Positions 2,776 through 47,296 of a DNA stretch of 64,000 nt are shown piece after piece. Location: IMG/VR virus record IMGVR_UViG_3300047672_000041, positions 6,008 to 70,007 of that record; one strand, given 5' to 3'. The notes under the pieces are model-generated. The model had not been told where the DNA came from and made no database searches. It was given only the letters and a program-made list of their open reading frames with translations. A program made the position numbers and the translations under genes. Origin of the DNA: a virus. Its lineage: Duplodnaviria; Caudoviricetes. Position 1 is the first letter of the stretch, and each line of letters opens with the position of its first letter.

Positions 2776-2815
2776 GGGCGCGGACCGTAGCAGACACGAC
2801 GCGCCACGCGGCCGG

Positions 2816-3100: not shown

Positions 3101-3392
3101 CCCCGCCGTCACCCTCGGCCGGTGCGGTGGCGGCGGTCCCGGCCATCACCGACCAGGCGATCACCCAGCCGTCCAGCCCGCACCGCCACAGCCGCCCCTG
3201 ACAGCCGCAACCCCGGTACGCCCCGACCAGGTCACCGGGTACCACCGCCGACCAGCGGATCGGGCGCCCACAGTCCACACAGCCCGGCCACGACTCGCTC
3301 ACCTGGTGCTGGTACACGGCCCGGCCGACCGTGCGGGCGGCGGCCCGGGCCCGGGTGTTGGACCGGTCGATCTCGGTCCCGAGACGGCTCAC
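3093..3392 (-). CDS. hypothetical Zn-ribbon protein
   Basis: CVDC and CGC motifs; overlap with neighbours. Confidence 0.5.
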   Translation of the reverse strand: MSRLGTEIDRSNTRARAAARTVGRAVYQHQVSESWPGCVDCGRPIRWSAVVPGDLVGAYRGCGCQGRLWRCGLDGWVIAWSVMAGTAATAPAEGDGGDE

Positions 3393-3709
3393 AGGGCGGT
3401 CATCTCGGCGGCGATCGCGTCCCGGCGGACCTCCAGCCCCCACAGCTCGCGCAGCATCCCGGCCAGCGGGGTCCCGCACTCGTTGGCCAGCGCCCACCCG
3501 ATCGGCGCCGCCTCGGCGTCGTACCGGTCCCACACCACGCCCCCGGCGTAGATCGGGTCGGCCTCGATCAGCGCCAGCAGCGCCGCCGGGGACGCCGCCG
3601 CCGCCGCCGACCGCAGGCTCAGCCCGGCCGGGTGGTGGGGGACCGGGCTCGGCCGGTGGCGCACCGCCACCTCGGCCGTCGTCGTGCGATCATGCGCGTG
3701 CGAGTCCAT
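3389..3709 (-). CDS. hypothetical protein
   Basis: ORF with phage-like coupling. Confidence 0.5.
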   Translation of the reverse strand: MDSHAHDRTTTAEVAVRHRPSPVPHHPAGLSLRSAAAAASPAALLALIEADPIYAGGVVWDRYDAEAAPIGWALANECGTPLAGMLRELWGLEVRRDAIAAEMTAL

Positions 3710-3827
3710 GGGGAGGTGGCCCTTCTGGTGGGGTCGTCGGCCGGTGCCCCGGCCGCGCGTGTCGTGCCTACCCGATGGGTGCGGCGGCGGCGCGCGGCGG
3801 GGTGCCGCGTCCGCTGACCGGGAGGGG

Positions 3828-4070
3828 TCAGGCGACGTCGGCCTCGACCCGGTCGGGGCGCGAGATGTCCTCGACCCGGCACCGCAGGGCCCGGGCGATG
3901 TCGCGGGCCATCCGGTCCGACGGCCAGCGGCGGCCCAGCGGCGGCCCGAGTTCGAGCACCTTCAGATACGACTCGGAGATGCCGGAGCGGTCGCGGAACT
4001 GGCGGCGGGTCATCCCCAGCGCCTCGCGCCGTGCCTTCACCTCGGCGCCGTCAAACTGTCGCGTCTTCAC
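3828..4070 (-). CDS. Cro-like XRE-family HTH regulator
   Basis: VKARREALGMTRRQFRDRSGISESYLKVLELG HTH; divergent from repressor; GTG 7 nt after CAAAAT. Confidence 0.85.
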   Translation of the reverse strand: MKTRQFDGAEVKARREALGMTRRQFRDRSGISESYLKVLELGPPLGRRWPSDRMARDIARALRCRVEDISRPDRVEADVA

Positions 4071-4233
4071 GGGGCCTATTTTGTCCTGTCGCCGACCGGG
4101 CCGCAACATCATCCCGCCCCCCCGACCGGACGATCCCGGAGGTCCGACGTCAGACAGGGAGGGTGCGCCCGGACACCCCCAGCCGCCGTCCGGTCGGTGG
4201 CGGGGCGTGACCGGAGGTGTCACGCTAGGCCAC

Positions 4234-4752
4234 GTGACGGGGACAAACGCCAGCAACGGCCACCGCGACCATCGTCGCGACCGCCGCCGCCCACTGCGCC
4301 CGGACGAGATCGCCTACCCGGCGGCCACCGTCCGGACCGCCCGCCAGCGCGCCCACCTCGAACAGGAGGACGTCGTGGCCCGGGTCGGGACGTCCATGCG
4401 GACCGTGACCCGCTGGGAGCGCGTCGGCGTGCCCTACCGCGCCCGCTACCTGGGCCGGGTCGAGGACGTCCTCGGGCTGGGCCCGTTCGCCGAGCGCGGC
4501 CCCGCCCCGGCCCCGGCGCGGCCCGCTCCGCCGGTGGCGCCGCCCGCCCTGCCGCCGCCGCGCCCCGATATCGGCGTGTTCACCATGGGGGAACTGCTCG
4601 GCGAGATCGCCCGCCGCCACGCCGCGCTGGAGGCCGGGCACCTCGCCCCGCCGACCGCGCCCGCCGCCGCCTACTACCGGTGGTCGCTCGCCGACGCCCC
4701 GTCCGCCCAGCTGGCCGACACGCCGGTCACCCATAGTTCCGACCGGGCCTGA
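4234..4752 (+). CDS. immunity repressor, XRE-family HTH
   Basis: VRTARQRAHLEQEDVVARVGTSMRTVTRWERVG; divergent from Cro-like gene; start inferred. Confidence 0.8.
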   Translation: MTGTNASNGHRDHRRDRRRPLRPDEIAYPAATVRTARQRAHLEQEDVVARVGTSMRTVTRWERVGVPYRARYLGRVEDVLGLGPFAERGPAPAPARPAPPVAPPALPPPRPDIGVFTMGELLGEIARRHAALEAGHLAPPTAPAAAYYRWSLADAPSAQLADTPVTHSSDRA

Positions 4753-4856
4753 TGCCGTAACGTCCGGATCCTCCCGCACCCGGCCCAGACCCCGCCGGTA
4801 GCACCTGTACCGCTGCTCGCTGCCCTTGGACAACCGGCACCCCTGGGGGACTGAAA

Positions 4857-5195
4857 GTGACCTCGCCGTCGCGGCATGCCCTACCGTCCCGACTCCCCGC
4901 CCTGACCGCCGCCGCGCGGCGCCTGCAGCTCGACCACGGCATCACCGTCGTCCCGACCGAGAATCTCCCGCCCGGCGTGCTGGGCGAGCTGGACCTGCCC
5001 GGCGGGGTCCTCACCGCCGACACCCGCGCCGCCGAGGGCGATCAGGCGTGGCTGTTGGCCGACGCGCTCGCGTTGCTCGCGGTCGGGGATGCCGCCAGCG
5101 CCGCGCACCCGGTCGCGGACCCGCCGCCGGTGCCGGTGCCGCTGCTCACGCTGGCCCGGCTCCCCGGCGGGCGGCACCCCTCCCGGGGCCGGTAG
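4857..5195 (+). CDS. ImmA/IrrE-like protein lacking HExxH
   Basis: ITVVPTENLPPGVLGELD...LLADALAL at the usual LAHEL.H position; directly after repressor. Confidence 0.5.
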   Translation: MTSPSRHALPSRLPALTAAARRLQLDHGITVVPTENLPPGVLGELDLPGGVLTADTRAAEGDQAWLLADALALLAVGDAASAAHPVADPPPVPVPLLTLARLPGGRHPSRGR

Positions 5196-5201
5196 CCGCG
5201 C

Positions 5202-5342
5202 CTAGGTGCGGGCCGCCACCGGATGGCAGGTCAACGCCGGACCGGCCGGGGCGAGCACCCGCTGCTCCCCGTACCCCGGGGAGCACCCGGCCACCGCCAC
5301 CGCCAGCAGCAGCAGCCCGAACAGGATCGCGGCGATCACCAT
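5202..5342 (-). CDS. small putative lipoprotein
   Basis: Hydrophobic signal plus lipobox VAG-C. Confidence 0.5.
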   Translation of the reverse strand: MVIAAILFGLLLLAVAVAGCSPGYGEQRVLAPAGPALTCHPVAART

Positions 5343-5377
5343 GTAGCCCGACCCCAGCAGCGGGGCGTGTCGTTGCG

Positions 5378-6340
5378 TCACCAGGGCACTATGCGGCGCA
5401 GCACCCCATCCAGGATCCGGGCCGGGTCCACCGTCGGTGGGTGGTACCCGTCGTACAGGTTGGCGGCCTCCAGCCAGCCCGGCTCGTCGGTCCGCAGCGC
5501 CAGGATCTGCCCGGCGATCATGTCCTGCTGCGGTAGCCGCCCCTCGGTCGGGTCGTAGGCCCTCGGGTGGCAGCACAGCCGCCCCCCGTAGTCCCCGTCC
5601 GGGTGATACCAGCGCACGTTCCCGTCGACGTGCCACGGGTCGACCTCGTACCGGGTGCCGTGCGACCCGACGACCGGGATCGGCGCGTTCCGGTCGAGCG
5701 CGCGGAGCTGGGCCGGGGACAGCAGCGACCGCAGCCCCGCGTCCGCCCGCGCGGCGGCCTTCTCCCGCGCCTCCAGCAGCCGCCGGGTCTCGGCCTGCAC
5801 CCGCGCGGCCCGGGCGCTGGCCTGCGCCGGGGTCTCCACCGGCGGCGCCGCCCGGGCGGCGGCGGCGAGCCCGCCCGCGCGCCACGCCGTCGGGGCGATC
5901 CCGGACCAGGCCGGGTCCTCGGGCGGCCGTCGCCGCCGGACGTGGCGCAGCACGTCCCGCCAGAACGGCGCCGCGTCCGGCCGCCAGTCGACCGTGATCC
6001 CGCCCGGCTCGAACACGACCGTCGTCCCCCGGTACGCCTCCGGGTCGGTGGTGCCGGTGGGGACGAGGGTGACCCGGCCCGTCCCGGCCAGGGTCGACAC
6101 CCCGTCGACGGTCCCCTCCCACCCCACGTCGTGGGTCGTCCGCCCGTCCCGCCCGTAGTGGGTCGAGAGGTGCAGCCGGGTCACCGCGAACCCCGGCACC
6201 GGGCGGTCCCCGTCGGCCACCAGCCGGGCCACCGCCTGCTCGACCATCGCGCCGAGCACCTGCTCCAGCGTGTCCGCGTCCAGGGTCGTCCCCGGCGGGT
6301 GAGCCACCATCACCTGCACCGGCGGCGGTGGCGGCGGCAA
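5378..6340 (-). CDS. hypothetical protein with C-terminal Cys-His domain (RLCCHP); partner of the Gly-Gly protein
   Basis: 320-aa ORF starting 3 nt after upstream stop; exact start uncertain. Confidence 0.75.
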   Translation of the reverse strand: MPPPPPPVQVMVAHPPGTTLDADTLEQVLGAMVEQAVARLVADGDRPVPGFAVTRLHLSTHYGRDGRTTHDVGWEGTVDGVSTLAGTGRVTLVPTGTTDPEAYRGTTVVFEPGGITVDWRPDAAPFWRDVLRHVRRRRPPEDPAWSGIAPTAWRAGGLAAAARAAPPVETPAQASARAARVQAETRRLLEAREKAAARADAGLRSLLSPAQLRALDRNAPIPVVGSHGTRYEVDPWHVDGNVRWYHPDGDYGGRLCCHPRAYDPTEGRLPQQDMIAGQILALRTDEPGWLEAANLYDGYHPPTVDPARILDGVLRRIVPW

Positions 6341-6879: not shown

Positions 6880-7206
6880 TCAGCCGATCGTCATGCCGTG
6901 CGCCCCCTCGGCCTGGGCCAGGGCGACCGGGTCCGGCTGCGCCTCGTGGCCGAGGACCCGCTCCCGGGTGCCGGGCCAGAGCACGAACTCGGTGGTCCGT
7001 CCGGTGCTGCCGACCGGCCGGGCGTGGACCACGTAACCGACCGGGCCCCCGGCCATGTCGGTCCGCACCCAGACCGGGGCGACGACGACGAAGTTGGATC
7101 CGGTGGTGCCGAACACGTCGCCGGGGCACAGGTCGCACGGGTGCACCTCGATCGGGTAGCGGCGGCGGTCGTGGCGGGGTCGTAGGGGGCCGGTGGTGGC
7201 GGTCAT
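6880..7206 (-). CDS. hypothetical protein
   Basis: Preceded by the conserved CCCTCACCGAAGGAG leader. Confidence 0.7.
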   Translation of the reverse strand: MTATTGPLRPRHDRRRYPIEVHPCDLCPGDVFGTTGSNFVVVAPVWVRTDMAGGPVGYVVHARPVGSTGRTTEFVLWPGTRERVLGHEAQPDPVALAQAEGAHGMTIG

Positions 7207-7233
7207 GGTGATCTCCTTCGGTGAGGGGTCGAG

Positions 7234-7413: not shown

Positions 7414-7449
7414 AGCGCCGAGTCTACACGTCCAGTAGCCGCGTGTCTA
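7414..7449 (-). promoter_or_regulatory. TAGAC-class promoter 1 (TAGACA-N17-TAGACT)
   Basis: Near-identical to 57351-57386. Confidence 0.75.
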
Positions 7450-8055
7450 TCCGATGGCGAGTTGGAGCCAGTCGTGCACCGGTTCGTACATCCCCCCGAA
7501 GGGCGCGAACGCCGCATCCGCCTCGGCGAGGGACACCCACCGCACAGCGGTCAACTCGTCGGCGTCGCCGACGAACACGGCAGCATCCCCGACCGGCTCC
7601 CCCGCCACATAGATCATCGTGCGCAGCGTGCGCGGATGCACCCGCCGCCCCAGCTCCTGCACCGCCCGGACCCGTAGCCCCGACTCCTCCTTCACCTCGC
7701 GGACCATCGCGTCCAGCGCCGACTCCCCCGGCTCGATCTCGCCGGACAGGAACCCCGCCGGGGGCGACTTGTCCCGCCGCCACGTCACCAGCATTCGACC
7801 CTCGAACGTGACCACCGCCGCCACCACCGGCTGCGGCTCCGGCCGCCCCGCCTCCGCCTCCGCCTGACCCGCCACCCAACCGCTCCCTTTCTTCCGCAGC
7901 TGGCGCCGCAGCTCCGCCAGGTCCCACTTCAACCAGCCGCCCGGCGTCACCACCGCCGGGACCACCACCCCGTCCCGCGCCCACCGGGTCAGCGAGCGCC
8001 GCGACACCCCCAGAGTCCGCGCGGCCACCGCCGAACTCACCAGGTGATCGGTCAT
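7447..8055 (-). CDS. MerR/excisionase-type HTH fused to a NUDIX hydrolase
   Basis: AARTLGVSRRSLTRWARDG HTH; Nudix box GEIEPGESALDAMVREVKEESGL. Confidence 0.85.
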   Translation of the reverse strand: MTDHLVSSAVAARTLGVSRRSLTRWARDGVVVPAVVTPGGWLKWDLAELRRQLRKKGSGWVAGQAEAEAGRPEPQPVVAAVVTFEGRMLVTWRRDKSPPAGFLSGEIEPGESALDAMVREVKEESGLRVRAVQELGRRVHPRTLRTMIYVAGEPVGDAAVFVGDADELTAVRWVSLAEADAAFAPFGGMYEPVHDWLQLAIG

Positions 8056-8176
8056 GGCCGCGAGTGTCGCACCTGGCGCCGTCTGGCCGCACCTCACCCG
8101 TGTAGCCCTTCGCGGCCCGGCGCGGCTAATCTGACCCCTCTCGTCCCGACTGACCCGCCCCCTCACCGGAGGACCC

Positions 8177-8371
8177 GTGCTCACCCTCACCCGCTGCCGC
8201 GACTGCGGCCGACACGAACCCCAACCGCCCGTGACCGTCGTCGACGGCGACGGCGCGACCAGCGTGTCGTGCGCGCTGTGCGCGATGGCCGTGGTCGGCG
8301 ACGCCGCCGAGCCCGTCACCCTGGTCCTGGCCGCCGCCGCGACCGCCCCCCTCATCCGGAAGGACGCCTAG
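8177..8371 (+). CDS. small Zn-finger protein
   Basis: CRDC and CALC; GGAGG RBS. Confidence 0.65.
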   Translation: MLTLTRCRDCGRHEPQPPVTVVDGDGATSVSCALCAMAVVGDAAEPVTLVLAAAATAPLIRKDA

Positions 8372-8377
8372 ATCATC

Positions 8378-8524
8378 ATGGGAGTATTCAAGGTCACCCG
8401 GTGCCCGTGCGGGTCCGGCAACGACGTCCGGTACTGCCACTGCAAGCGCCTCGGCAAGGCCGGGATCACCCACAACGGCCGTCGCGTCCCCGCGCCCAAG
8501 GTCCCCCGGAAGAAGATCCGGTGA
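8378..8524 (+). CDS. 48-aa SEC-C-like Zn-binding basic peptide; not in ORF track
   Basis: CPCGSG...YCHC motif; stop overlaps next GTG. Confidence 0.55.
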   Translation: MGVFKVTRCPCGSGNDVRYCHCKRLGKAGITHNGRRVPAPKVPRKKIR

Positions 8525-8760
8525 CCGGCCGCAACGGCGCCAGCCGCACCACACCCGTCTACCTCGTCGTCCCGGAACTGGCCGAGATGGTCGCCGCGTC
8601 CCTGCGCCGCGACGCCGACGCCCAGGCCGCCGCCGCCGCCGACACCGACCGCACCGCCCTCACCGCCCCGCTGATCGCACTGATCCGCCGGTGCGCCGCC
8701 CAGACCGACCCCTACGCCGACCCCGGCCGGGCCGTCACACCCGACGAGGCCAAGCCATGA
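8521..8760 (+). CDS. hypothetical protein
   Basis: GTGA and ATGA coupling on both sides. Confidence 0.6.
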   Translation: MTGRNGASRTTPVYLVVPELAEMVAASLRRDADAQAAAAADTDRTALTAPLIALIRRCAAQTDPYADPGRAVTPDEAKP

Positions 8761-8957
8761 GCCCCGACGACATCCGCCCCGGCCTCCAGGTGATCGCCAC
8801 CGACGCGTTCGGGCAGGATCACCCCGGCGTCGTCACACGCGGCCCCGTCGCCCCGCGCGGCAAGGGCAGCTTCTGGAAGGCCTTCGTACGGATCAACGAC
8901 GACGAGATCCCGTGGCCGGTCGAGTCGCTCCGCACCGGACAGGAGATCACGCCATGA
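8757..8957 (+). CDS. hypothetical protein (SH3-like pattern)
   Basis: ATGA coupling. Confidence 0.6.
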   Translation: MSPDDIRPGLQVIATDAFGQDHPGVVTRGPVAPRGKGSFWKAFVRINDDEIPWPVESLRTGQEITP

Positions 8958-9157
8958 CCGAAGCGCACGAGCTGCCCTACCACCCCCGCGACTCCGTCCT
9001 CGTCCGCCGCATGATCGAACTCGCCGTCGACGAGACCCACGTTGCCGAGCGCCACCGCAAGGGCACCTGCTGGTGCCTGGTCCAGGGCGGCGGCGGCATG
9101 AAATCCGCCCGCCACACCCGCCAGTACCCCGTCCCCCGGTTCGGGGCGACACCATGA
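8954..9157 (+). CDS. hypothetical protein
   Basis: AGGAG RBS; coupling; H..CWC motif. Confidence 0.6.
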   Translation: MTEAHELPYHPRDSVLVRRMIELAVDETHVAERHRKGTCWCLVQGGGGMKSARHTRQYPVPRFGATP

Positions 9158-9378
9158 GGCGCTACCGCAGCAGCGCCCACCGCCAACTGGAGGAAGCCGT
9201 GCGCGCCGCCCGGGGCACCTGCGAACCCGCCGGGTCGGGCAAGATCCGCATCACCGGGCCCACCGGCTCCATCACCATCTACGCCCCCGGCGGCGACACC
9301 CGCCGCGACCTCCGCCGCTCCAACGCCGCCCGGAAGATCGCCGAGAAGACGGGCCTCGTCCTGGGGGACAAGCGATGA
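9154..9378 (+). CDS. small basic hypothetical protein
   Basis: ATGA coupling on both sides. Confidence 0.6.
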   Translation: MRRYRSSAHRQLEEAVRAARGTCEPAGSGKIRITGPTGSITIYAPGGDTRRDLRRSNAARKIAEKTGLVLGDKR

Positions 9379-9653
9379 CCCGGCCGCGCCTCAACCTCGA
9401 CGAGGAGGGCTGGCTGCGGGTCATCACCACCGGCGTCACCGTCGCCGCCCTCGCCGTCTGCGCCGGATTCCTCGGCGCCCCCCCGGCCCTCATCGCGGCC
9501 GGGCTCGCCGTCCTCGCCGGAGCCCCGGCCGTCTGGCTGTGGCACCGCCACCTCGACGACCTCACCAACCGCCGCACCCTCGCCAACGCACCCGTCTACG
9601 ACCAGCCCCACCCGGCCGCCGACATCCGGCCCGCCGTCGACCGCGCCGTCTAA
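9375..9653 (+). CDS. membrane protein (2 TM)
   Basis: Two hydrophobic segments. Confidence 0.65.
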   Translation: MTRPRLNLDEEGWLRVITTGVTVAALAVCAGFLGAPPALIAAGLAVLAGAPAVWLWHRHLDDLTNRRTLANAPVYDQPHPAADIRPAVDRAV

Positions 9654-9662
9654 GGAGACCTC

Positions 9663-9839
9663 ATGGCCCGCACCCCGAAAGCCGCCCGCCAGTACAACAA
9701 GGCCGACCAGGCCGAGGCCCGCGCCAAGGCCAAGGACCACGGCAGCCCCGCCCACGGCCGCGCCATCGACAACGTCAACGCCAAGGTCAAGGCCTACGAC
9801 AAGGCCTACCGGCGCGCCACCAAGCGCGGCCACGAATAG
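9663..9839 (+). CDS. 58-aa basic protein; not in ORF track
   Basis: AAGGAG RBS; MARTPKAARQYNKADQAEARAK... Confidence 0.65.
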   Translation: MARTPKAARQYNKADQAEARAKAKDHGSPAHGRAIDNVNAKVKAYDKAYRRATKRGHE

Positions 9840-9849
9840 GAGACCGGCC

Positions 9850-9996
9850 ATGCAGAAGATCACCGTCACCGCCAACGCCCCCGACGACGCCGCCGACCCC
9901 GACCACGACACCGGCCTCAACAGCGACGCCTACAACGACCTGCTCGACGCCCTCATGGAACTCGGCTACGACGACGTCGACATCACCCGGTCATGA
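9850..9996 (+). CDS. 48-aa acidic protein; not in ORF track
   Basis: AGGAG RBS; MQKITVTANAPDD...; stop overlaps next ATG. Confidence 0.6.
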   Translation: MQKITVTANAPDDAADPDHDTGLNSDAYNDLLDALMELGYDDVDITRS

Positions 9997-10286
9997 GCGA
10001 CTGGGTCCTCGGCGGACTCCCCGCCCTGTCCATCACCGGGCTCACCCTGATGACCCTCATGGTCATCGGCGTCCCCGGCGCCGCAGCGGGGGGCGTCGCC
10101 TGCGCCGGGCTCGCCGCCGGGTTGGGCGCCGCCGGGGGGCTCCACGTCGTGCGCACCCGCCGCCCCCTCTGGCAGGCCGCCGCCGCCGCCCGCGCCCGCA
10201 TCCCGTTCGGGGCGTGGTGCTACCACTGCAAGGCCTGGACCGAGCACGAGCTGGCCACCGGCTGCACCGAATGCGGGCGACGATGA
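9993..10286 (+). CDS. membrane protein with C-terminal Zn ribbon
   Basis: 2 TM segments plus CYHC and CTEC. Confidence 0.65.
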   Translation: MSDWVLGGLPALSITGLTLMTLMVIGVPGAAAGGVACAGLAAGLGAAGGLHVVRTRRPLWQAAAAARARIPFGAWCYHCKAWTEHELATGCTECGRR

Positions 10287-10501
10287 TGCGCCGGGTCCGC
10301 CTCGTCGAGCCGTACTGGCACGACGTCGCCGAGGTCGGCGTCGTGGTCGAGCCCGCGCCCGGCGACGACCCGGAGCCTCGCTGCCTGGGCAAGGTCACGC
10401 CCGGCCGCTGGGTGCTGGTCGAGTGGCCCGCCCACCCGGACCGGGGGATCTCCGGCGCCCGGTTCTGGGAGCGCGCCGACGCGGTGCGGGAGCGACGATG
10501 A
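10283..10501 (+). CDS. hypothetical protein
   Basis: Coupled ORF MMRRVRLVEPYW... Confidence 0.55.
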   Translation: MMRRVRLVEPYWHDVAEVGVVVEPAPGDDPEPRCLGKVTPGRWVLVEWPAHPDRGISGARFWERADAVRERR

Positions 10502-10653
10502 CCGGCCCGGTCCTCGCCCTACTCGCGTTCGCGGGCGCCATGGTGTGGCTGTCGACCATCGCCCCCGGCGCAGCCAACGCAGCCATCGGCGCACTGCTGC
10601 TCGCGGGCTTCCTGGCGATCCTCGAAGCCGTGGACTGGGTGAGGGACCGATGA
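10498..10653 (+). CDS. small membrane protein (2 TM)
   Basis: Hydrophobic; coupled. Confidence 0.6.
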   Translation: MTGPVLALLAFAGAMVWLSTIAPGAANAAIGALLLAGFLAILEAVDWVRDR

Positions 10654-11072
10654 TCGCCGACAGCGTGATCCTGACCGTCTACCTCGCCGTCGCCGCCCTC
10701 GGCCTCCTCGCCGCCATCGGCGTCGTCGCCTACAGCCAGGCCCGGGAACGCGAAGGCGAACGCGGCCTACCCGACCCGCTGTTCGGCGACACCCTGGACG
10801 GGTCCGACATCATATCGGGCGCCCTCGCGGCGGCCATGTGGCCGGTCGCCCTCGTCGTCGGCGCGGTGTGGGCCGCCTACCGGGGGCTGGTCCGGCTCCT
10901 GCGGATCCGGGTCCGCGCCGGGCTGGCCGCGCGCCGCCAGGCAGCCGACCGGCAGCGCGAACGCGAGGCGGCCGAGGCGCAGAGCCGGGAGCTGCTCGAT
11001 CAGATCATCGCGGCCACCGGCGACCCGCACGAGCGCCACCAGCTCCGGATCGTCCGCGACGGCCTCCGGTGA
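10650..11072 (+). CDS. membrane protein (2 TM plus coiled coil)
   Basis: Hydrophobic segments; coupled. Confidence 0.65.
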   Translation: MIADSVILTVYLAVAALGLLAAIGVVAYSQAREREGERGLPDPLFGDTLDGSDIISGALAAAMWPVALVVGAVWAAYRGLVRLLRIRVRAGLAARRQAADRQREREAAEAQSRELLDQIIAATGDPHERHQLRIVRDGLR

Positions 11073-11135
11073 TCATTGTGACTGGCAGTCAGAAACCCGT
11101 TCAAGATCGCCACCCTGTGTGAAAGGTGCTGATCA

Positions 11136-11696
11136 GTGCCGCCGCCGCCCCCGCCGCCGGACGCGTGCCGTCGGGCTGCCGAGCTGTGGGCGGCACACCA
11201 CCCCTACGCCGAGGTCGCGGAGATCCTGCGCTCTGAGGGCTACGACGGGCGGCACCCGCCGCTGCCCCGCTGCGGGTCCCCGACGACCGCGCTCAACTGG
11301 GCGCAGCGGCACCGCAACGAGGCCGTCGCGGGCGAGAACTACGCCGCTGCGCTGGACCGCGACGACGGCCGCCTCGTGCTGGCCGACGCCATCCTGCGGG
11401 ACTGGACCCGGATCGACCGGGGGTATGAGACCGACGAACTCACCCTGGAGAAGATGCTCGACCTCAAGCTGCGATTGCTCTACCCGGCGTTCGCCCGGCT
11501 GATCGGGGCGAACGCGGCGACCCAGATCGCGGTGTCCGGGAGTCTCACCCCGCCCGCGCCGGACCCGGCCGGGTTGGCGTCGTTGGATGCGACGGTGGAG
11601 CAGGCCCGCCGCGATGATGAGACGGCGGCGTTCGAGCGTGGGGTGGCGGAGCGCGCGGCGCGGCGGCGGCGGGCGCGGGAGGACGAGGGCGCATGA
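11136..11696 (+). CDS. putative terminase small subunit (orphan pair)
   Basis: N-terminal HTH-like RAAELWAAHHPYAEVAEIL; GAAAGG RBS; ATGA overlap with TerL. Confidence 0.55.
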   Translation: MPPPPPPPDACRRAAELWAAHHPYAEVAEILRSEGYDGRHPPLPRCGSPTTALNWAQRHRNEAVAGENYAAALDRDDGRLVLADAILRDWTRIDRGYETDELTLEKMLDLKLRLLYPAFARLIGANAATQIAVSGSLTPPAPDPAGLASLDATVEQARRDDETAAFERGVAERAARRRRAREDEGA

Positions 11697-13180
11697 CGTT
11701 GGCGTTGGCGGCGGGGATCCGGGAGGCGGCCGAGGCGACCCAGTTCCCGCCGGGGACCGACGCGCGGCGGCTGCTGATGCCGTTGCGGACGCCGTCGGTG
11801 GAGCTGGCCGAGCCGGGGTGGCGCCGTCGGATCACCCGCGCCTCCCCGTTGATCTTCGCGATGACGTATCTGCCGCACTACCTGCGGCAGTCCGACACCG
11901 GGCGACCGTCGGTGTCGCGGCTGCATCTGGATCTGTGTGTGGCCGGGGAGGATCTGCTGGTGCCGGGGCCGTCGCGGGATGTGTGGGTGGCGCCCCGCGA
12001 GTCGGGCAAGTCGGTGTGGCTGATGGTGATCCTCCCGTTGTGGGCGTTGGCGCACGGGCACACCCGGTTCGCGGTGCTGTTCTCCTACACGGCCGGGCAG
12101 GCGCGCGGGCATCTGGCGAACCTGTTGGGGGAGTTGCGGACCAACCAGCTTCTGTTGTGGGACTTCCCGGAGCTGCGGATCGCGGGCGGGTCGATGACCA
12201 CCCGGTTCGAGCTGGGCGGCGGGGGGGCGGTCGCGGCCCGGGGGATGGGCGAGACGTCGCAGGGGATCCGGGCGCACGCGGACCGGCCGACGTTGATGAT
12301 CGGGGACGATCTGGAGCCGGGGGAGGCGCGGAACACCCTGGCCGAGGTCGGGCAGCAGCAGTCGCGGCTGTTGCACAACATCCTGCCGATGAACTCCCGC
12401 GCCGTGGTGTGGATCAACGGCACGGTCACGATGTACGACAGCCTGATCCACCAGTTCGTGCACGCCATCAAGGGCCGGGCCGGGGTGGAGTGGGTGCGGG
12501 CCAACCGGTTCCGGGTGCACCACTATCCGGCGCTGGACGACCTGGGGCGGTCGTTGTGGGAGCAGCGGTGGACGACGGAGTGGCTGCGCCGGGAACGCGA
12601 GGCCGACCCCCACGGCTACGGCCTGAACTACGACTGTGACCCGGAGAAGCCGGTGCACCAACGGTTCTGGGAGCCGGACACGTTCCGGTACAACTCCCGG
12701 TTCCACGTCGCGGAGCGGGTGCTGTACATCGATCCGGCGGTGTCGTCGCGGGCGTCGTCGGACTTCACGGTGCTGGCGATGGCGGCGGCCGACCCCGGTC
12801 GGCGGCGGGCGCTGGTGGAGCGGTGCGAGTGGGGGCAGTGGAACCCGCCGCAGGTCCGGGAGCTGATCCACGACTTCTGCGCCCCGTGCGTGATCAAACC
12901 GGTGGTGCTGGTCGAGGGCAACAACGGCGGGGAGGCGCTGCTCGACGCCTACAGCCCGTGGCCGGTCGACGTCGAGTACCGCCTAGTCCACTCGTCGGTG
13001 TCGAAGCGGATGCGGATCGAGTGGGGGTTCAGCCACTACCGGCGTCGCGCGGTGGATCATCCGTGGGAGTTGCCGGAGCTGGAGCGGATCCTGTGCGAGT
13101 GGCCGCGCGGCGCGCACGATGACGTCCCGGACGCGGTCGCGGGGGCGCTGCTGCACCTGTGGCCCCGCGTGGAGGGCTAG
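11693..13180 (+). CDS. terL: terminase large subunit no. 1 (orphan; Terminase_6/6C type)
   Basis: Walker A APRESGKS, Walker B LMIGDDLE, nuclease YIDPA...SDFT...HDDVPDA. Confidence 0.9.
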   Translation: MTLALAAGIREAAEATQFPPGTDARRLLMPLRTPSVELAEPGWRRRITRASPLIFAMTYLPHYLRQSDTGRPSVSRLHLDLCVAGEDLLVPGPSRDVWVAPRESGKSVWLMVILPLWALAHGHTRFAVLFSYTAGQARGHLANLLGELRTNQLLLWDFPELRIAGGSMTTRFELGGGGAVAARGMGETSQGIRAHADRPTLMIGDDLEPGEARNTLAEVGQQQSRLLHNILPMNSRAVVWINGTVTMYDSLIHQFVHAIKGRAGVEWVRANRFRVHHYPALDDLGRSLWEQRWTTEWLRREREADPHGYGLNYDCDPEKPVHQRFWEPDTFRYNSRFHVAERVLYIDPAVSSRASSDFTVLAMAAADPGRRRALVERCEWGQWNPPQVRELIHDFCAPCVIKPVVLVEGNNGGEALLDAYSPWPVDVEYRLVHSSVSKRMRIEWGFSHYRRRAVDHPWELPELERILCEWPRGAHDDVPDAVAGALLHLWPRVEG

Positions 13181-13533
13181 CGGAACAGCTCGCCCTGCTG
13201 CCCGACCGGCACCTCGGCCGGGACGATCAGGCCCTCGCCCTTGCGGTACACCTGGGCGCTGCGACCGGTGCGGGTGGCGCGACGGTCGCCCTTGATCCAG
13301 CCGATCTGCTCGTCCCGTTTCAGTTCGGTGATCCGCGCGGAGCAGGTCTGGTGGCTGATGCCCAGCCGTAGCTCGACCTCGTCGCAGGTGGCGCCGTCGG
13401 CGCAGCGTTCGATGTGGTCCTGGACGCGGCGGCGTTCCGTCGCGCGGATCTCGGCCGGAGTGTGCTCGTGCGCGGCCCGGCTGTACTCGTTACCGCCGTG
13501 GTAGTGGCGGGTGATGTCGTCGTCGCGGCTCAC
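13177..13533 (-). CDS. winged-HTH DNA-binding protein
   Basis: GATCDEVELRLGISHQTCSARITEL...TRTGRSAQVY. Confidence 0.7.
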   Translation of the reverse strand: MSRDDDITRHYHGGNEYSRAAHEHTPAEIRATERRRVQDHIERCADGATCDEVELRLGISHQTCSARITELKRDEQIGWIKGDRRATRTGRSAQVYRKGEGLIVPAEVPVGQQGELFR

Positions 13534-13567
13534 GGGCTGACAGCCTCCTCCGTCAGGTCACACGGCG

Positions 13568-13594
13568 CGGCCCCCGGTCGGTGACCGGGGGCCG
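13568..13594. terminator. hairpin, putative terminator
   Basis: 12-bp perfect inverted repeat CGGCCCCCGGTC with 3-nt loop. Confidence 0.6.
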
Positions 13595-13617
13595 TGGGTC
13601 GTGCGGGCGGAGGGGGC

Positions 13618-14106
13618 CTAGCGGCGCGGCGCCAGCATCTCCTCGATCTGGTCGCGGTCCATCCCCAGCGACGAGCCGATGGCGGTCATGAACCCCTTCA
13701 CCGCCTCCTGGGCGCGCACGGTGCCCATGGTGGCGCTGGTCGCGAGCGGCCGGAGGTGACCCATCCCGACCCGTTCCAGCATCCGCTCCCACTCCTCGGT
13801 GACGGTCTCCTCGGTGTAGAGCCGGGTCAAGATGTGCTTGGCGTTCTGCAGGACGTCAAGCTGCGCCGTCTGATGGTCGTCGACCAGCGAGTACCCGGAG
13901 TAGCGGCCCCGCTCGATCAGGATGGCCATGCGGTCGTTGCGGCGCTGGGTGCGCAGCACCTGCCACCCGTTGCGGACCTGGTAACGGGTCAGCCCGGTCC
14001 GGTCGGCTAGCTGACTGATGTGCAGCTCGGCGCCGCCGATCCGGTATAGCGCGTCGTAGATCAGGTCGGCGGCCATGTCGGGGCTGACGCGGGGTCGGGG
14101 GCTCAT
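13618..14106 (-). CDS. HTH-containing hypothetical protein
   Basis: LHISQLADRTGLTRYQVRNGW. Confidence 0.7.
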   Translation of the reverse strand: MSPRPRVSPDMAADLIYDALYRIGGAELHISQLADRTGLTRYQVRNGWQVLRTQRRNDRMAILIERGRYSGYSLVDDHQTAQLDVLQNAKHILTRLYTEETVTEEWERMLERVGMGHLRPLATSATMGTVRAQEAVKGFMTAIGSSLGMDRDQIEEMLAPRR

Positions 14107-14966
14107 GCTTCGGCCTCCAGCAGCGCGCGCAGCTCGTCGTCGAGGTCGCCGCCGTCGATGCACCGGCGGAGCGCGTCGAGCCACATGCCGAGCTGGTCGG
14201 CCTCGGGGGTGAAGCGGCGCCGCTCGTCTTCGGTGAGGTCGACGCCGACGAGGGAGTCGACGGCGATCCGGGCGCTGACCGTGGCGCGCAGGAGGTGGTC
14301 CAGCGCGACGACGAGCCGGGCGTGGCGTTCCCGGTCCGGGTTGGGCCCGATCGGCTCCGAGCCGATCAGACCCTCGGCGCGGGCCCGCCGGGCGCGCTCC
14401 ACGATCTCGTCCTGGTGGGCCCGCTCGGTCTCGCGGACATGGTGGACGACGGCCGGGGCGGCGGCCACCTCGCGGGCCACGGTCGGGTCGTCCTCGACCA
14501 TGCGCCGGACCTGCTTGGCCCGATGGACCGGGGGCAGCTCGTCGAGGAGGGTCTGGGCGACCTCCGCCTTCCGCTCGGGCGAGTCATTCTTGTAGGCGCG
14601 CCGGAACTCGTCGTGCGAGGTACCGGGCCACTCGAACTCGGCCGGGGGCAGTTCTACGTCGGTGTCCCCGGGCGCGACGCTGGTCACGTGCCCGGCGTCG
14701 ATGGCGGACTGCCAGGCCTGCCGGTACTTGCGGACGGTGTCCTGGCTCACCAGACCTTTGAACCCCTGCCGGGCGAACTCTCGGACCGGCATCGGGAAAG
14801 AATGCACCACTTCTAGTGCATTCTTTGGCGGCTGACCCGGTCCATCGTTCGTGGTGAACGCCCACACGATGGCGGCGCGCTCCCATTTGCGGGCGGTCAG
14901 GAGTTTGTCCAGCCCGGCGAGCCGGGTGGTCAACTTCTCCGGAGTCGGGATGTTGAACGTGGTCAT
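14103..14966 (-). CDS. hypothetical protein (probable DNA-binding)
   Basis: 287-aa coupled ORF; VREFARQGFKGLVSQDTVRKYR resembles an HTH. Confidence 0.75.
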   Translation of the reverse strand: MTTFNIPTPEKLTTRLAGLDKLLTARKWERAAIVWAFTTNDGPGQPPKNALEVVHSFPMPVREFARQGFKGLVSQDTVRKYRQAWQSAIDAGHVTSVAPGDTDVELPPAEFEWPGTSHDEFRRAYKNDSPERKAEVAQTLLDELPPVHRAKQVRRMVEDDPTVAREVAAAPAVVHHVRETERAHQDEIVERARRARAEGLIGSEPIGPNPDRERHARLVVALDHLLRATVSARIAVDSLVGVDLTEDERRRFTPEADQLGMWLDALRRCIDGGDLDDELRALLEAEA

Positions 14967-15253
14967 TCGGTGGTCTCCTCGGTGATGTTCGTCAGTGCGT
15001 CCCGGACTCCCGCCACGGCGGTGTCGTGTTCCAGCGCGAGGCTTTCCTTGGTCGCGATGCGTTCCAGTTCGGTCTGGATGTGTAGCTCGCGGTCGATAGT
15101 GGATTGCCGCTGGGTCTCGACTCGGAGCCCCACCTCGATGAGGTAGGTGACGGCCCCGGTCACGGTGCGGTGAGTGCGGATCGCGTAGTCGGTGACCGCC
15201 TGGTGGAGGTCGGCGGGCACCCGTGGGTGCAGGGATTTCGTTGGTGTCCCCAT
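14963..15253 (-). CDS. ribbon-helix-helix (Arc-like) regulator
   Basis: KSLHPRVPADLHQAVTDYAIRTHRTVTGAVTYLIEVGL. Confidence 0.7.
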   Translation of the reverse strand: MGTPTKSLHPRVPADLHQAVTDYAIRTHRTVTGAVTYLIEVGLRVETQRQSTIDRELHIQTELERIATKESLALEHDTAVAGVRDALTNITEETTE

Positions 15254-15292
15254 GCGCCCAGACTATAGCGGTGCGCTCCCGGCCGGGAGCGC
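15254..15292 (-). promoter_or_regulatory. leaderless promoter (TATAGT) with adjacent 20-bp palindrome
   Basis: TATAGT 8 nt before ATG; GCGCTCCCGGCCGGGAGCGC at 15273-15292. Confidence 0.6.
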
Positions 15293-15299
15293 GGTGGTA

Positions 15300-15557
15300 T
15301 CACCCGGGGGGCCGCCGGAGGCCCGCGCGGAGGGCGCCGAGGCGGGGCAGCATCCAGCACGTCCAGCTCGCCGACGCGAGCAGCGAGGCGCAGCCCCACC
15401 CGACCATGACCCAGTACCAGACAGCGCCGTAGAAGTCGGGCCCACCGGCGGCGGCGGCGCTGACGAAGACGGTGAGGGCGCCGATGACGGTGACGAAGTG
15501 CCCGATGACGGTCCGGCGCAGGGCCCGGTCGAGCGGGGTCGGCAGTGGGCGGGTCAT
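15300..15557 (-). CDS. membrane protein (2 TM)
   Basis: Hydrophobic segments; coupled. Confidence 0.6.
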   Translation of the reverse strand: MTRPLPTPLDRALRRTVIGHFVTVIGALTVFVSAAAAGGPDFYGAVWYWVMVGWGCASLLASASWTCWMLPRLGALRAGLRRPPG

Positions 15558-15832
15558 GGCAGCGTCGGCCAGGGCAGCGGCGGGGACTCCAGCTGCAGCA
15601 CCCGGAGGATGCACGTCGGCCAGCCGACCCGGTTGCCGCAGACGTCGACGCCGTGGGCGGCGGCGCCCTCCTGGCTGAGCCAGACCAGTTGGCGGGCGGC
15701 CTCGCGGCGTTCGATCCAGCCGGGGACGGCGACGTCGCACGGGTCGACGCCGTGGGCGCGGAGCCACTCGCACCAGATGCGGCGCTCGGGTTCGGGTGGG
15801 AGCCGGTCGAACTCGACGGCGTCGGGGGTCAT
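15554..15832 (-). CDS. hypothetical protein
   Basis: MTPDAVEF...; ATGA coupling. Confidence 0.6.
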   Translation of the reverse strand: MTPDAVEFDRLPPEPERRIWCEWLRAHGVDPCDVAVPGWIERREAARQLVWLSQEGAAAHGVDVCGNRVGWPTCILRVLQLESPPLPWPTLP

Positions 15833-15981
15833 GGGCCGGTGGGGATGGTGAGCAGCCCGACGACGGCGAACAGGATCACCAGGACGAAGGCGCTGAGGAA
15901 GATCCACCCGATCAGGGAGGCGAGGGCGCGGAGGGGCCGGTGGGGGCGCAGGCCCGGCCGCCGGTCGGGCGGCCGGGTCAT
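15829..15981 (-). CDS. small membrane protein (1 TM)
   Basis: Basic N-terminus plus hydrophobic helix. Confidence 0.55.
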   Translation of the reverse strand: MTRPPDRRPGLRPHRPLRALASLIGWIFLSAFVLVILFAVVGLLTIPTGP

Positions 15982-16478
15982 CAGCCCGCGTCGCCCTGCT
16001 TGGCGTCTTCGGCCTGTCGGCGGATGATCTGCGCGCGCAGCGCGGCGGGGCTGGTGCCGGTGAGTTCGGCCGACGCGATGGACTCGCGGACCAGCTTGGC
16101 CGAGAGGCGCCCGCGTCCGGCCGGGGCGACGTACTGCCCCCGGCCGGGGTACCAGACGCGACTCGCGACGGGCCGGTAGCGGGTGCGGCGCCCGATCCGG
16201 TAGCTCTCCCACGTCTCGACCCGCTCGGCGCATTCGCAGGTCGGGCAGCGCAGGCGGCGCAGGAACAGCCCGTCGTCGGTGTAGTCGGTGAAGTGGATTC
16301 CGTCGCGGACCGAGGGCCAGTCGTGGCGGCCCCGTTCGCGGCAGGTGAGGATGCCGGGGGTGGCGGCGTCGACGTAGGCGTCGACGTCGCCGGTGTCCAT
16401 GGGCCCGACGATGTCGACCCAGTCACCTCGGGCGGCCTCGCCTTGGATGGAGCGCAGGGACATCGCGGGCTCACTCAT
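15981..16478 (-). CDS. hypothetical Zn-binding phage protein
   Basis: CRERGRH and CPTC motifs. Confidence 0.7.
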   Translation of the reverse strand: MSEPAMSLRSIQGEAARGDWVDIVGPMDTGDVDAYVDAATPGILTCRERGRHDWPSVRDGIHFTDYTDDGLFLRRLRCPTCECAERVETWESYRIGRRTRYRPVASRVWYPGRGQYVAPAGRGRLSAKLVRESIASAELTGTSPAALRAQIIRRQAEDAKQGDAG

Positions 16479-17536: not shown

Positions 17537-17812
17537 TTATTCACCCGCTGAGTATGTCCGACGACTGTCCGTGAGCGCGGGCAGGGTGAGGATCTCGCGG
17601 GCGGCCTGGAGCTGGGTGGCGGTCGAGGGGAGCGCCACCCCCAGCTCGGCGCCGTAGAGCAGCTCCCGAGCGACCAGGCTGGCCAGCCCCGGCGGCAGCA
17701 CCCGGGCGGCGCGCCGGGCCGCCTCGCGCAGAGTGATCTCCTCACCCCGGGCGAGGGTGCCGGGGGGCCGACCGGGGTCGGGCTGGTCGAACAGGCCGGG
17801 GCCGCCGTTCAC
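17537..17812 (-). CDS. hypothetical protein
   Basis: GTGA overlap with GH25 stop. Confidence 0.55.
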   Translation of the reverse strand: MNGGPGLFDQPDPGRPPGTLARGEEITLREAARRAARVLPPGLASLVARELLYGAELGVALPSTATQLQAAREILTLPALTDSRRTYSAGE

Positions 17813-18726
17813 AGCTTGGCGACGGTCTCGATGCACACGACCCCGCCGTCGGGCAGGTCGTAGCTCATCTGGACCTGGGTGGTGCCGTCGGGGAGCTGCT
17901 CCCAGAACCGCCCGGACCGGCCGTCGTCGTAGGGGATGTCGGCGTCGGAGTCGGCCAGCGCAGCGGTGTCGGTGGTGAACCGGTAGCGGACGTGGCCGGG
18001 GGCCGGACCGTTGACGGCGGTGGAGATCCAGGCCCGGGCGGTCGCGGCGGACGCCGACCCGACCGGCACGACCAGGGTCAGGCTGCCCGCGCCGGGGGCG
18101 AGGGGCTGGTTGCGGACCTCGTTGTCGGCGACGGCGACGGCGGTGTCGAGCCCGACGATCCGGGCCAGCGGCCACCGCAGCCGGTTGAGGTCGACGTTGC
18201 CGTTCACCCCGGGGACCCGCCCGGTCTGGCTGAACTGGTGGAGGCCCACGCGCGGAGACACGTAGCGGGGGGTGCCGGGCGGGGCGCTGTAGTCGGCGAT
18301 CCACAGCATCACGTCGTCGTCGGCCCACCGCTCGCCGAGCTGGTTGGCGAAAAAGTAGGCGCCGGAGTAGAGCGCGACCCGGCGGTGCCCGATGCGGGTG
18401 CGCAGCTCACCGAGGAACCGCTGCGCGCGGGCGGACTGGTCGCCTGGGCCGTCCTCCAGGTCCAGGGCGGGGGGTAACGCGCCCGGGCCGTAGGCGCGCA
18501 GGGAGGCGACGTGCAGGGCGAACGCGCGGGCGGCGGTGACCGGGTCGGCGGTGGCCGGGAGCCGGTAGTACAGCCCGGTCGCGAGCCCGGCGGCGCGGGC
18601 CCCGCGCAGGTGCTCGGCCGGGTCCTGGTTGGAGGCGTTGATGTAGGCGAACTCGTACCCGGCGGCGGCGACCCGGCGCCAGTCGATCGCCCCCTGCCAG
18701 CGGGACACGTCGAGTCCGTCGGGCAT
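17809..18726 (-). CDS. endolysin 2, GH25 muramidase
   Basis: GLDVSRWQGAIDW, ALDLED, LHQFS motifs. Confidence 0.92.
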   Translation of the reverse strand: MPDGLDVSRWQGAIDWRRVAAAGYEFAYINASNQDPAEHLRGARAAGLATGLYYRLPATADPVTAARAFALHVASLRAYGPGALPPALDLEDGPGDQSARAQRFLGELRTRIGHRRVALYSGAYFFANQLGERWADDDVMLWIADYSAPPGTPRYVSPRVGLHQFSQTGRVPGVNGNVDLNRLRWPLARIVGLDTAVAVADNEVRNQPLAPGAGSLTLVVPVGSASAATARAWISTAVNGPAPGHVRYRFTTDTAALADSDADIPYDDGRSGRFWEQLPDGTTQVQMSYDLPDGGVVCIETVAKL

Positions 18727-18860
18727 CAGGTGCTCCTCCCGGTGATGAGCAGCCAGCAGCGGCGCCACCAGGGGGCGCGCGCGCGGGGGTGGTGCCAGCA
18801 GCCGCAGCTCAGGCAGAACGAATCATGGCAGTGGCAGGAGCAACGGGCGGTGTCGAGCAC
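18726..18860 (-). CDS. 44-aa Cys/His/Trp-rich peptide; not in ORF track
   Basis: GGAGAG RBS, GTG start, TGATG overlap with GH25 start. Confidence 0.55.
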   Translation of the reverse strand: MLDTARCSCHCHDSFCLSCGCWHHPRARAPWWRRCWLLITGRST

Positions 18861-18875
18861 GTACGGATCTCTCTC

Positions 18876-19802
18876 CTACTTGGACACGGTCTCGACGCAC
18901 ACGACCCCGCCCTCGGGGAAGTCGTACTGGACGTTGACCTGGGTGCAGCCGGACGGCGCCTCGTGCCAGAACCGGGTGGACATGCCGTCGTGGAACCCGA
19001 TCTCCCGGGCGAGGTCGGAGATCCCGGTGTCGTCGCCCTGGAACCAGTAGTGCACCGACCCCTTGGTTGGGCCGTTGACCACGGCGCTGACCCAGGCGCG
19101 GGCGACCCCGGAACCGGCCGCGTTGACGGGGACGATCAGGCGCAGGGCTCCGGCGCCCGGGGCGATCTGGAAGTTCTGCACGGGATCGGGCTCCTTCATC
19201 GGTGGCGGGGTCGAGGGCGACAGGGCGCCGCCCCCGGCGAGCTGGCGGGCCATCTCGATCACGCGGGGGATCTGGGCGATGCGCCGCGCGCCCGGGCAGA
19301 CCTTCCCCCGGGCCGACGACCACAGCTCCCCGCCGGACACCCGGACCGGGTCGCAGCCCTGCCGGTGGTAGCCGACGCCGCGCCGGTTCGGGCGGGAGTC
19401 GGGGATCAGCTCGATCGGGATGTTGTAGGCCTGGCAGCAGCGGGCGGTGATCTCGGCGATGGCCCGCATCTGGGCGTCGGTCCACGGCGGGACGTTGTCC
19501 CCGCTGGTGTTCCACTTCCCGAACATCGGCTCGCCGTAGTCGGCCGTCTCGATCGAGATCAGCCGATAGTTGCCGTTGAGGTTGGCCTCGGCCACGAAAT
19601 CGGTGTCCTGCCACTGCCGGACGGTGCCGTCCCCGCCGACCCCGAAGTGGGACTCGGTGCCCCCGTACCCGTTCTGGTGGAACATGGCCGACGTCCCGGC
19701 CAGCGACCCGACCATGGTGTGGTAACAGACGATGTCGTGGCGGGCCATGCGCCCCTGGGTCTGCGGGCCCAACGGGTCCCAGATGCCGTACCGGACTCCC
19801 AT
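18876..19802 (-). CDS. endolysin 1, N-acetylmuramoyl-L-alanine amidase (Amidase_2)
   Basis: CYHT, SHFGV, ISIET, GYH...KVCPG motifs. Confidence 0.92.
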   Translation of the reverse strand: MGVRYGIWDPLGPQTQGRMARHDIVCYHTMVGSLAGTSAMFHQNGYGGTESHFGVGGDGTVRQWQDTDFVAEANLNGNYRLISIETADYGEPMFGKWNTSGDNVPPWTDAQMRAIAEITARCCQAYNIPIELIPDSRPNRRGVGYHRQGCDPVRVSGGELWSSARGKVCPGARRIAQIPRVIEMARQLAGGGALSPSTPPPMKEPDPVQNFQIAPGAGALRLIVPVNAAGSGVARAWVSAVVNGPTKGSVHYWFQGDDTGISDLAREIGFHDGMSTRFWHEAPSGCTQVNVQYDFPEGGVVCVETVSK

Positions 19803-44921: not shown

Positions 44922-44930
44922 GTCGGTTCC

Positions 44931-47292: not shown

Positions 47293-47296
47293 CGTG

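Follow-up and report, generated by a model that had tools for sequence, protein, structure and literature searches.

A conserved TerS–TerL pair apart from the portal and head genes in an uncultured actinophage and its relatives

The subject of this work is a pair of genes for a small and a large terminase subunit, here called TerS2 and TerL2, in a 64,000-nucleotide stretch of viral DNA (the window: bases 6008-70007 of the 70,007-bp IMG/VR virus record IMGVR_UViG_3300047672_000041, GC 73%) whose source is an uncultured high-GC actinophage. We conclude with high confidence that the pair is an intact, conserved, portal-unlinked TerS–TerL paralogue of single origin, accessory to phages that have a packaging module of their own. 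The terminases of tailed phages are regarded as hallmark genes present in a single copy and are used for taxonomy, for the prediction of packaging strategy and as bait in finding prophages. A conserved portal-unlinked TerS–TerL clade that is co-resident with another terminase breaks this single-copy assumption, and such orphan pairs would mislead the terminase-based prediction of DNA ends. The pair also points to an unrecognised use of the two activities of the packaging enzyme, site-specific recognition and ATP-dependent cutting.

An intact terminase pair apart from the head module

A PHROG scan links TerL2 with the terminase large subunit family phrog_38 (E 1e-54), and a Pfam scan returned no match. 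The motifs that an earlier note on this DNA had read from its letters are all in place, at TerL2 residues 100 (APRESGKS), 203 (IGDDLE), 345 (YIDPA), 356 (SDF) and 475 (HDDVPDA), as is the ATGA overlap that couples the TerL gene to the gene before it. The AlphaFold2 model of TerL2 (predicted local distance difference test, pLDDT, 91.9) matches solved TerL structures, the best of them being the T7-like PhiV-1 terminase (E 6e-16). Nine residues (R102, K106, D205, D206, D347, D357, D476, D477 and D480) are invariant. Among these, Walker A K106 and Walker B D205/D206, which do not vary in 33 family members and are kept in the wider sample, mark an ATPase of the additional-strand, catalytic-glutamate (ASCE) type, while D347, D357, D476, D477 and D480, together with a two-domain fold that matches solved TerLs, mark an RNase H/RuvC-like nuclease. 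All nine catalytic residues are present in 212 of the 225 sampled family sequences, orphan and portal-linked members taken together, and they are kept in every checked member of the clade of portal-less relatives described below (the orphan clade). In one clade member the RNase H-like domain that Pfam defines for the T7 terminase is matched weakly, below the Pfam cut-off. Some members are forms of 850-1080 aa that carry a LAGLIDADG intein (8159-11272 in locus L087; P0171, P0182 and P0198); resumption of the TerL match at residue 106 places this intein at the Walker A site or close to it.

Pfam and PHROG scans gave no match for TerS2. A profile built from TerS2 and five relatives aligned with a profile of annotated TerS proteins (the TerS of MiniFlayer, Mulchroom and Wyvern, the helix-turn-helix (HTH) protein of Zuko and four metagenomic TerL neighbours) at an hhalign probability of 95.9% and E 6e-9, and a plain TerS2 hidden Markov model cross-matches canonical TerS, that of Wyvern and others. 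The AlphaFold2 model (pLDDT 82.8) starts with an HTH at the N terminus and continues through a long helical hairpin to a C-terminal helix; Foldseek ranked the TerS of G20c and P74-26 at the top with scores that were not significant, and a PDB sequence search with the TerS2 profile gave coiled-coil noise only. In 11 of the first 11 loci, and in 8 further ones, the orphan TerL is preceded on its own strand by a TerS2 homologue, which lies 0-2.6 kb upstream. As judged from its sequence and model, TerS2 thus has the attributes of a TerS: homology to known small subunits, an N-terminal HTH with a helical core, and a gene immediately upstream of TerL. The earlier description of this gene as HTH-bearing was right as to the HTH, which the fold model and the profile match both place in TerS2, although no Pfam match stands behind it.

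The flanks of the pair were found to hold no portal, capsid or protease gene. As the earlier note had also stated, a second TerL, of another family (TerL1; SRQNGKT at residue 74), lies beside the portal, 34.3 kb away on the opposite strand. TerL1 shares its Walker A (G78/K79) and Walker B (D183/E184) residues with all of 25 homologues, and no sequence relative of it was found in the PDB; we considered and rejected the idea that TerL2 compensates for a defective TerL1, since TerL1 is intact. Identity between the canonical module and its counterpart in the ENA relative L040 is 75-84%.

Co-residence of two terminases is directly shown in four full records, namely this phage (G000) and G001-G003, and is deduced in a fifth, the closest relative (L002), from its two terminases being recorded on contigs of matching length (68,884 bp) and source. 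That relative is syntenic with this phage, with identities of 83% for the portal, 77% for TerL1, 59% for TerL2 and 39% for TerS2. The portal-linked partners vary: a phrog_9 TerL with a phrog_12/PF04860 portal in this phage, a TerL1-like TerL with a PF04860 portal in G001 (a provirus by its IMG/VR class), a phrog_9 TerL with a phrog_104 portal in G002, and a phrog_2 TerL with a phrog_2662 portal in G003, a genome that is complete by a 127-bp terminal overlap. The co-resident portal-linked TerLs belong to two PHROG families and the portals to three types, and wherever a whole genome is available a separate TerL-portal-capsid module is present. The portal-linked TerL1-like gene of G001 (29789-32356) itself contains a Hom_end intein.

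A portal-less clade and its shortened C terminus

A word-indexed search of 5.8 billion proteins yielded 43 TerL2 homologues, and an exhaustive profile search yielded 881 cluster representatives of the wider TerL2 family with an E-value of 1e-30 or lower. In IMG/VR, a scan with a single protein returned no relatives, and an alignment-based scan retrieved them; a copy of INPHARED held no deposited phage genome with a clade member, its best matches being canonical enzymes at 33% identity. The earlier note had proposed that homologues be checked for portal neighbours, and the outcome is uniform: all 18 readable contexts are portal-less (0/18 portal-adjacent), so that close homologues never lie in head modules and the clade lacks the linkage to head genes that goes with a packaging TerL. 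In the same 18 cases small genes transcribed in one direction form a long operon, here labelled early/replication, in which the orphan TerL comes last or nearly last and which converges on lysin and tail genes; such operons may also hold genes for a helicase, a methylase, endonuclease VII, an excisionase-like HTH protein or WhiB.

The context-verified orphans form one clade in a quick IQ-TREE tree of 60 sequences (SH-like approximate likelihood-ratio support 97-98), with all 13 portal-linked TerLs outside it, and a FastTree analysis of 84 sequences cleanly separates 22 portal-linked from 18 portal-less members. When 147 further cluster representatives were added (231 sequences), the core clade, defined by the most recent common ancestor of the window gene and G001-G004, comprised 88 members with support of 0.94 and no portal-linked member, and it includes at least 38 further clusters at 50% identity. 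The common ancestor of all portal-less members is not usable for setting clade limits, as the basal L095 and L075 fall outside the core clade (L075 has an IS605 OrfB/TnpB-type gene with a Cas12f-like TNB domain at 5113-6333, 2.2 kb downstream of its portal-less TerL). All 22 portal-adjacent relatives, including those of the phages Zuko and PHTowN and the satellite MiniFlayer, lie outside the clade, whose sister group consists of the true packaging enzymes of direct-terminal-repeat (DTR) phages and satellites (the Zuko/PHTowN/Wyvern/MiniFlayer group; PMC10690885). On the evidence of these sequence trees, the TerL2 clade is of single origin and split off from the canonical terminases of the DTR type that actinophages have.

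The C terminus is the sole systematic difference of the orphan clade. After the last catalytic aspartate (D480), TerL2 has 15 residues and the orphan clade 11-19 (median 15), against 23-37 (median 28) in portal-linked relatives, in which the tail consists of a basic linker and a terminal aromatic motif (...SYV, SYL, FSYR, AYA, SQKY or GSWM). This motif is present in 22/22 portal-linked members and absent from the orphan clade, and since the outgroups have long basic tails the loss is derived. TerL's C-terminal tail binds the portal in lambda, T3 and other phages (Hilbert et al. 2017, PMC5389665). Because the tail is lost and published work places portal binding there, we consider it reasonable, but unproven, that the missing segment corresponds to the portal-docking element and that the clade no longer docks on a portal.

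Accessory status and possible function

TerL2 is the only gene of the phage with homologues in all nine related loci, and the pair keeps a constant relative genome position in phages without other common genes; G002-G004 otherwise share almost nothing. Among IMG/VR records that reach at least 30 kb and encode a terminase of the TerL1 type, 30 out of 30 were found to lack a TerL2-family gene; 12 of them are at least 90% complete (positive control 5/5), and it is because phages with this type of head module lack the pair that we regard it as accessory. It occurs both in integrase-bearing or proviral phages (G004, G001) and in a complete integrase-less genome (G003).

A crude NG86 (Nei–Gojobori) comparison of one phage pair puts the protein-level rate of TerL2 at ~2-2.7 times that of TerL1, portal and capsid, with omega of 0.65-0.72 against 0.23-0.28 for those three and about 1 for TerS2, which is faster still; dS is compressed at 95% GC in third codon positions (GC3), so omega is inflated and only the relative values are meaningful. 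The dN/dS check that the earlier note had suggested for relaxed selection thus shows a raised relative rate, yet no catalytic residue has been lost. A remnant in decay, left from a head module that was replaced, would explain this higher rate of amino-acid change relative to TerL1, portal and capsid, but it accords poorly with the open frame, with catalytic residues retained over a deep tree and with a TerS partner in all loci. As for an assembly chimera, the other threat to the pair that the earlier note had named, the layout and its linkage to tail and lysis genes recur in independent Logan, ENA and IMG/VR assemblies, which rules it out. We therefore regard the remnant-or-chimera explanation as largely refuted and give it hardly any credence.

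On balance, we lean towards the pair being a portal-independent, TerS-guided, ATP-dependent enzyme that cuts or translocates DNA, and not a head-filling enzyme. We hypothesize that TerS2 would bind a DNA site, possibly a conserved motif just upstream of its own gene, and would then recruit TerL2, which, without docking on the procapsid, would cut DNA, and perhaps also translocate it, in an ATP-dependent reaction during expression of the early and replication genes. The 63-bp gap before TerS2 has a GC content of 51% against 73% in the window, which bears out the AT-richer upstream region of the earlier note. It contains a perfect palindrome, TGACTG-G-CAGTCA, at 11079-11091 and the conserved motif TCGCCACCCTGTGTGAA at 11107-11123, directly 5' of the ribosome-binding site of TerS2. 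Four related loci (L002, L003, L004 and L007) have a gap of 45-80 bp at the equivalent place with a TCGYCAC..GTGTGA-like motif, and no second copy of TCGCCACCCTGTGTGAA was found elsewhere in the window.

One candidate target of the putative enzyme is the phage's own replicating DNA, where cutting could give recombinogenic ends to RecE/RecT; the presence of genes for a RecE-like exonuclease, a RecT-like annealing protein and an initiator implies that the phage is able to process double-strand ends by recombination. Other candidate targets are host DNA and the DNA of competing DTR-type phages or satellites. Because of its patchy distribution, its independence from the types of head and replication module and its faster evolution, we favour an accessory, conflict-type role over an essential one. 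More tentatively, and with slightly more doubt than conviction, we suggest that actinophages may have repurposed a terminase lineage as a portable two-gene endonuclease/translocase cassette that would attack DTR-type competitors or satellites or would start recombination-dependent replication.

Several points weigh against such a portal-independent enzyme. The upstream motif, a candidate recognition site, may be just a promoter or operator; the label of early operon reflects gene content and orientation only; and the backbone of the tree between the core clade and ~28 other short-tailed sequences, L075 and L095 among them, is poorly resolved. The contrast in tail length is essentially one evolutionary event, and statistics on it are not independent evidence; the loss of the tail could mean changed regulation and not lost docking, and an N-terminal portal contact has been proposed for T4 (PMC5389665). 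PADLOC gave no meaningful defence match for TerS2, TerL2 or eight neighbours. Finally, the strict retention of the ATPase motifs would also suit a real packaging motor.

Such a motor, with the pair docking on the phage's own procapsids and using another recognition site, would provide a DTR or headful mode of packaging or bring about generalised or lateral transduction. It would account for an ATPase and a nuclease that are complete in all catalytic residues and accompanied by a TerS partner, for nearest relatives that are bona fide DTR-type packaging enzymes, and for an intein at the P-loop as in working terminases. Yet the clade lacks the C-terminal tail of every portal-linked relative, is never found beside head genes (18/18) and shares its genomes with portals of three unrelated families and TerLs of two, and phages of the same head-module type manage without the pair. 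Closely related orphans (G002, G003) sit with different portals, which makes co-adaptation to a portal unlikely. A second packaging motor is the strongest of the competing explanations, but we consequently think it unlikely, and the alternative headful mode that the earlier note had put forward loses ground through the clade-wide tail loss and the co-occurrence with three unrelated portal types. A search for repeats near the pair found none that were DTR-like or pac-like.

A TerS-guided nuclease could also behave as a selfish, homing-type cassette that cuts cassette-free phage genomes where the early operon meets the late one and spreads by recombinational repair in co-infection. This would fit the patchy occurrence of the only gene common to otherwise unrelated phages, its recurrence at the same relative genome position, and the combination of a site-specific DNA-binding subunit with a nuclease. 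However, the ATPase motifs are strictly conserved though homing needs none, the flanking genes differ, several loci have further small genes after TerL2, and no common target site is evident; moreover, the divergence is deep and tree-like, and near-identical copies in unrelated phages were not seen in the sample. We rate homing as quite improbable.

Still less probable, in our view, is an embedded satellite or pirate module that redirects packaging, the first possibility that the earlier note had listed. Distant TerL2 relatives (27-30% identity) are indeed the terminases of the Streptomyces satellites MiniFlayer and Mulchroom, but these satellites have long DTRs together with genes for portal, scaffold and capsid, and the TerL that they encode lies outside the clade and keeps its tail. 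The position of the pair, by contrast, is syntenic across divergent phages, and no integrase, attachment (att) sites, repeats, capsid genes or replication genes were found delimiting it, so that it lacks the marks of a satellite or parasitic insert.

Immune sensors such as Avs target terminases, and a decoy for them had been suggested in the earlier note. We found no positive evidence for a decoy and rejected it, as early expression of a TerL would trigger such sensors and not blunt them. Positive evidence was likewise lacking for a motor working with the upstream membrane proteins, also suggested there: homologues of the upstream membrane genes were found in the closest relative, L002, only, and for this reason we treat these genes as context and not as part of the conserved module.

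Genome setting and known systems

The gene map (Table 1) is based on GC3-guided gene calling and protein family scans. The leftward arm, for replication and recombination, has its far end outside the window, immediately to the left (locus L006, record bases 1689-5266), with genes for RecE-like and RecT-like proteins and a replication initiator, followed by small genes as far as a NUDIX-MerR gene at 7447-8355 (-). Divergent from the latter, a rightward operon of small genes, some of them membrane-spanning, starts at ~8.2 kb and terminates in the pair. As the earlier note had observed, TerL2 abuts a convergent gene, and the two stop codons overlap in CTAG; no homologue of that gene was found in related loci. 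A long leftward block begins here with HTH genes and others of unknown kind (13177-16478), a membrane protein that is a holin-like candidate, and two endolysins (17809-19802), and continues through tail genes, among them that of a 1604-aa tape measure, and a head-tail adaptor to the capsid-to-TerS1-like module, a glycosyltransferase gene and a ParB-like gene. The rightward arm starts at 53.2 kb.

Table 1. Position and strand of the terminase pair, its neighbours and the canonical packaging module in the window
Feature	Position	Strand	Remarks
Upstream small genes	9375-9653, 9663-9839, 9993-10286, 10423-10653, 10545-11072 (span 9375-11072)	+	GC3-based calls; several with transmembrane segments
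Intergenic gap before TerS2	11073-11135	+	candidate promoter, operator or TerS2 recognition site (putative function)
TerS2, small terminase subunit partner	11136-11696	+	186 aa, GC3 0.92
TerL2, orphan large terminase subunit	11693-13180	+	495 aa, GC3 0.95
Winged-HTH-like convergent gene	13177-13533	-	weak HTH_20 and phrog_1123 matches; stop overlaps TerL2 stop
Canonical packaging/head module	43467-49528	-	contrast to the pair
Major capsid	43467-44921	-	canonical module
Protease	44931-45866	-	canonical module
Portal	45934-47292	-	PF04860, phrog_12
TerL1	47458-48972	-	phrog_9/Terminase_6N
TerS1-like gene	48920-49528	-	canonical module

Several further features of the genome deserve a record in their own right. 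Directly upstream of TerS1, 49521-51439 (-) encodes a TET-associated glycosyltransferase (TAGT; PF20691, E 1e-38) and the ParB-like protein; no TET/JBP dioxygenase or C5-methyltransferase to accompany the TAGT gene was detected in the 70-kb record, and in the relative L040 the place is taken by a ParB-methylase fusion. A region of ~1.8 kb (51440-53218) that separates the head-module arm from the right arm, which diverge, has no confident gene call and is a candidate cos site, origin or regulatory region. A promoter-like element, TAGACACGCGGCTA-N6-GTGTAGACT (TAGACA-17-TAGACT), has identical copies at 7421-7449 (-) and 57351-57379 (+), each a few bases 5' of a start codon, where chance would predict zero occurrences; with the element so near the start codons, the transcripts may be leaderless. 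A 42-nt repeat (7186-7227 and 57873-57914) spans the ribosome-binding site and start of two further genes, and together the two repeated sequences look like an early promoter and leader reused on both arms.

The variable block between TerL2 and the lysis genes contains a gene for a 287-aa protein (14103-14966, -) that resembles actinobacterial DUF6192 by language-model features only (score 0.96), and one for a 96-aa ribbon-helix-helix-like protein (14963-15253). The open reading frame at 33543-35735 (-), of 730 aa, consists mostly of tandem units, degenerate and rich in Gly/Ala, of 72 nt (24 aa) each (repeat families D1-D9) and adjoins a tail-fibre/tail-spike-like gene (35732-37363). Within the head-tail gene block, 40625-41305 (+) encodes, on the opposite strand, a NUMOD4/HNH_3 homing endonuclease, whose homologues stand at other positions in L002 and G004, as expected for a mobile free-standing endonuclease. 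The 257-aa product of the gene at 62299-63072 (-) has two CxxC pairs like those of zinc ribbons (phrog_908/1467, weak DUF7340). This is the only gene besides TerL2 that is common to G001-G003 and one that also appears weakly in G004; its homologues lie a few kb upstream of the head module in those genomes, and it is a possible late-gene regulator.

Among known systems, the TerS–TerL pairs of DTR-type actinophages are the closest to the pair described here; they include those of the Streptomyces phages Zuko/KimJongPhill and PHTowN/Dryad/Gibson, the Microbacterium phages Wyvern/OscarSo, the plasmid-prophage phiM2 and the satellites MiniFlayer and Mulchroom. TerL2 resembles their TerL with 27-33% identity over 90% of its length and the same catalytic residues, and in these phages and satellites, as in the orphan loci, a homologous TerS lies directly or closely upstream. 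The DTR-type TerL, however, is the only terminase of its genome, stands beside the portal, has the basic linker and aromatic C-terminal motif, and belongs to the sister group of the TerL2 clade. The best structural match to the TerL2 model is a T7-type gp19 (PhiV-1 terminase, PDB 8DGC chain E), yet its sequence identity is ~14%. According to literature cited in PMC5389665, gp19 of T7 and T3 docks on the prohead via its C-terminal region, and it is in this docking region that the orphan clade, in contrast, is shortened.

The pair is also reminiscent of the hijacking strategies of Staphylococcus aureus pathogenicity islands (SaPIs), phage-inducible chromosomal islands (PICIs) and capsid-forming PICIs (cf-PICIs), in which the satellite encodes TerS or both TerS and TerL; the likeness lies in an extra terminase component and in the idea of redirected DNA recognition. 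SaPIs and PICIs are separate integrating elements with replication and excision genes of their own, to which cf-PICIs add capsid and portal genes (PMC10690885). In contrast, the pair is an integral, syntenic part of a phage genome and is not accompanied by such genes.

Full-text literature searches returned no description of this clade, the nearest item being the degenerate Pham3880, and the TerL2 lineage is apparently undescribed. Pham3880, of cluster C1 mycobacteriophages, is a terminase-like protein that is additional to the packaging TerL and hosts inteins (Kelley et al. 2016, PMC5050341), and it lacks the P-loop and most of the ATPase domain (PMC5050341). TerL2 differs from it in being complete in both domains and in having a TerS partner, and a repurposed lineage of this kind, if true, would give a complete phage terminase its first described function outside packaging.

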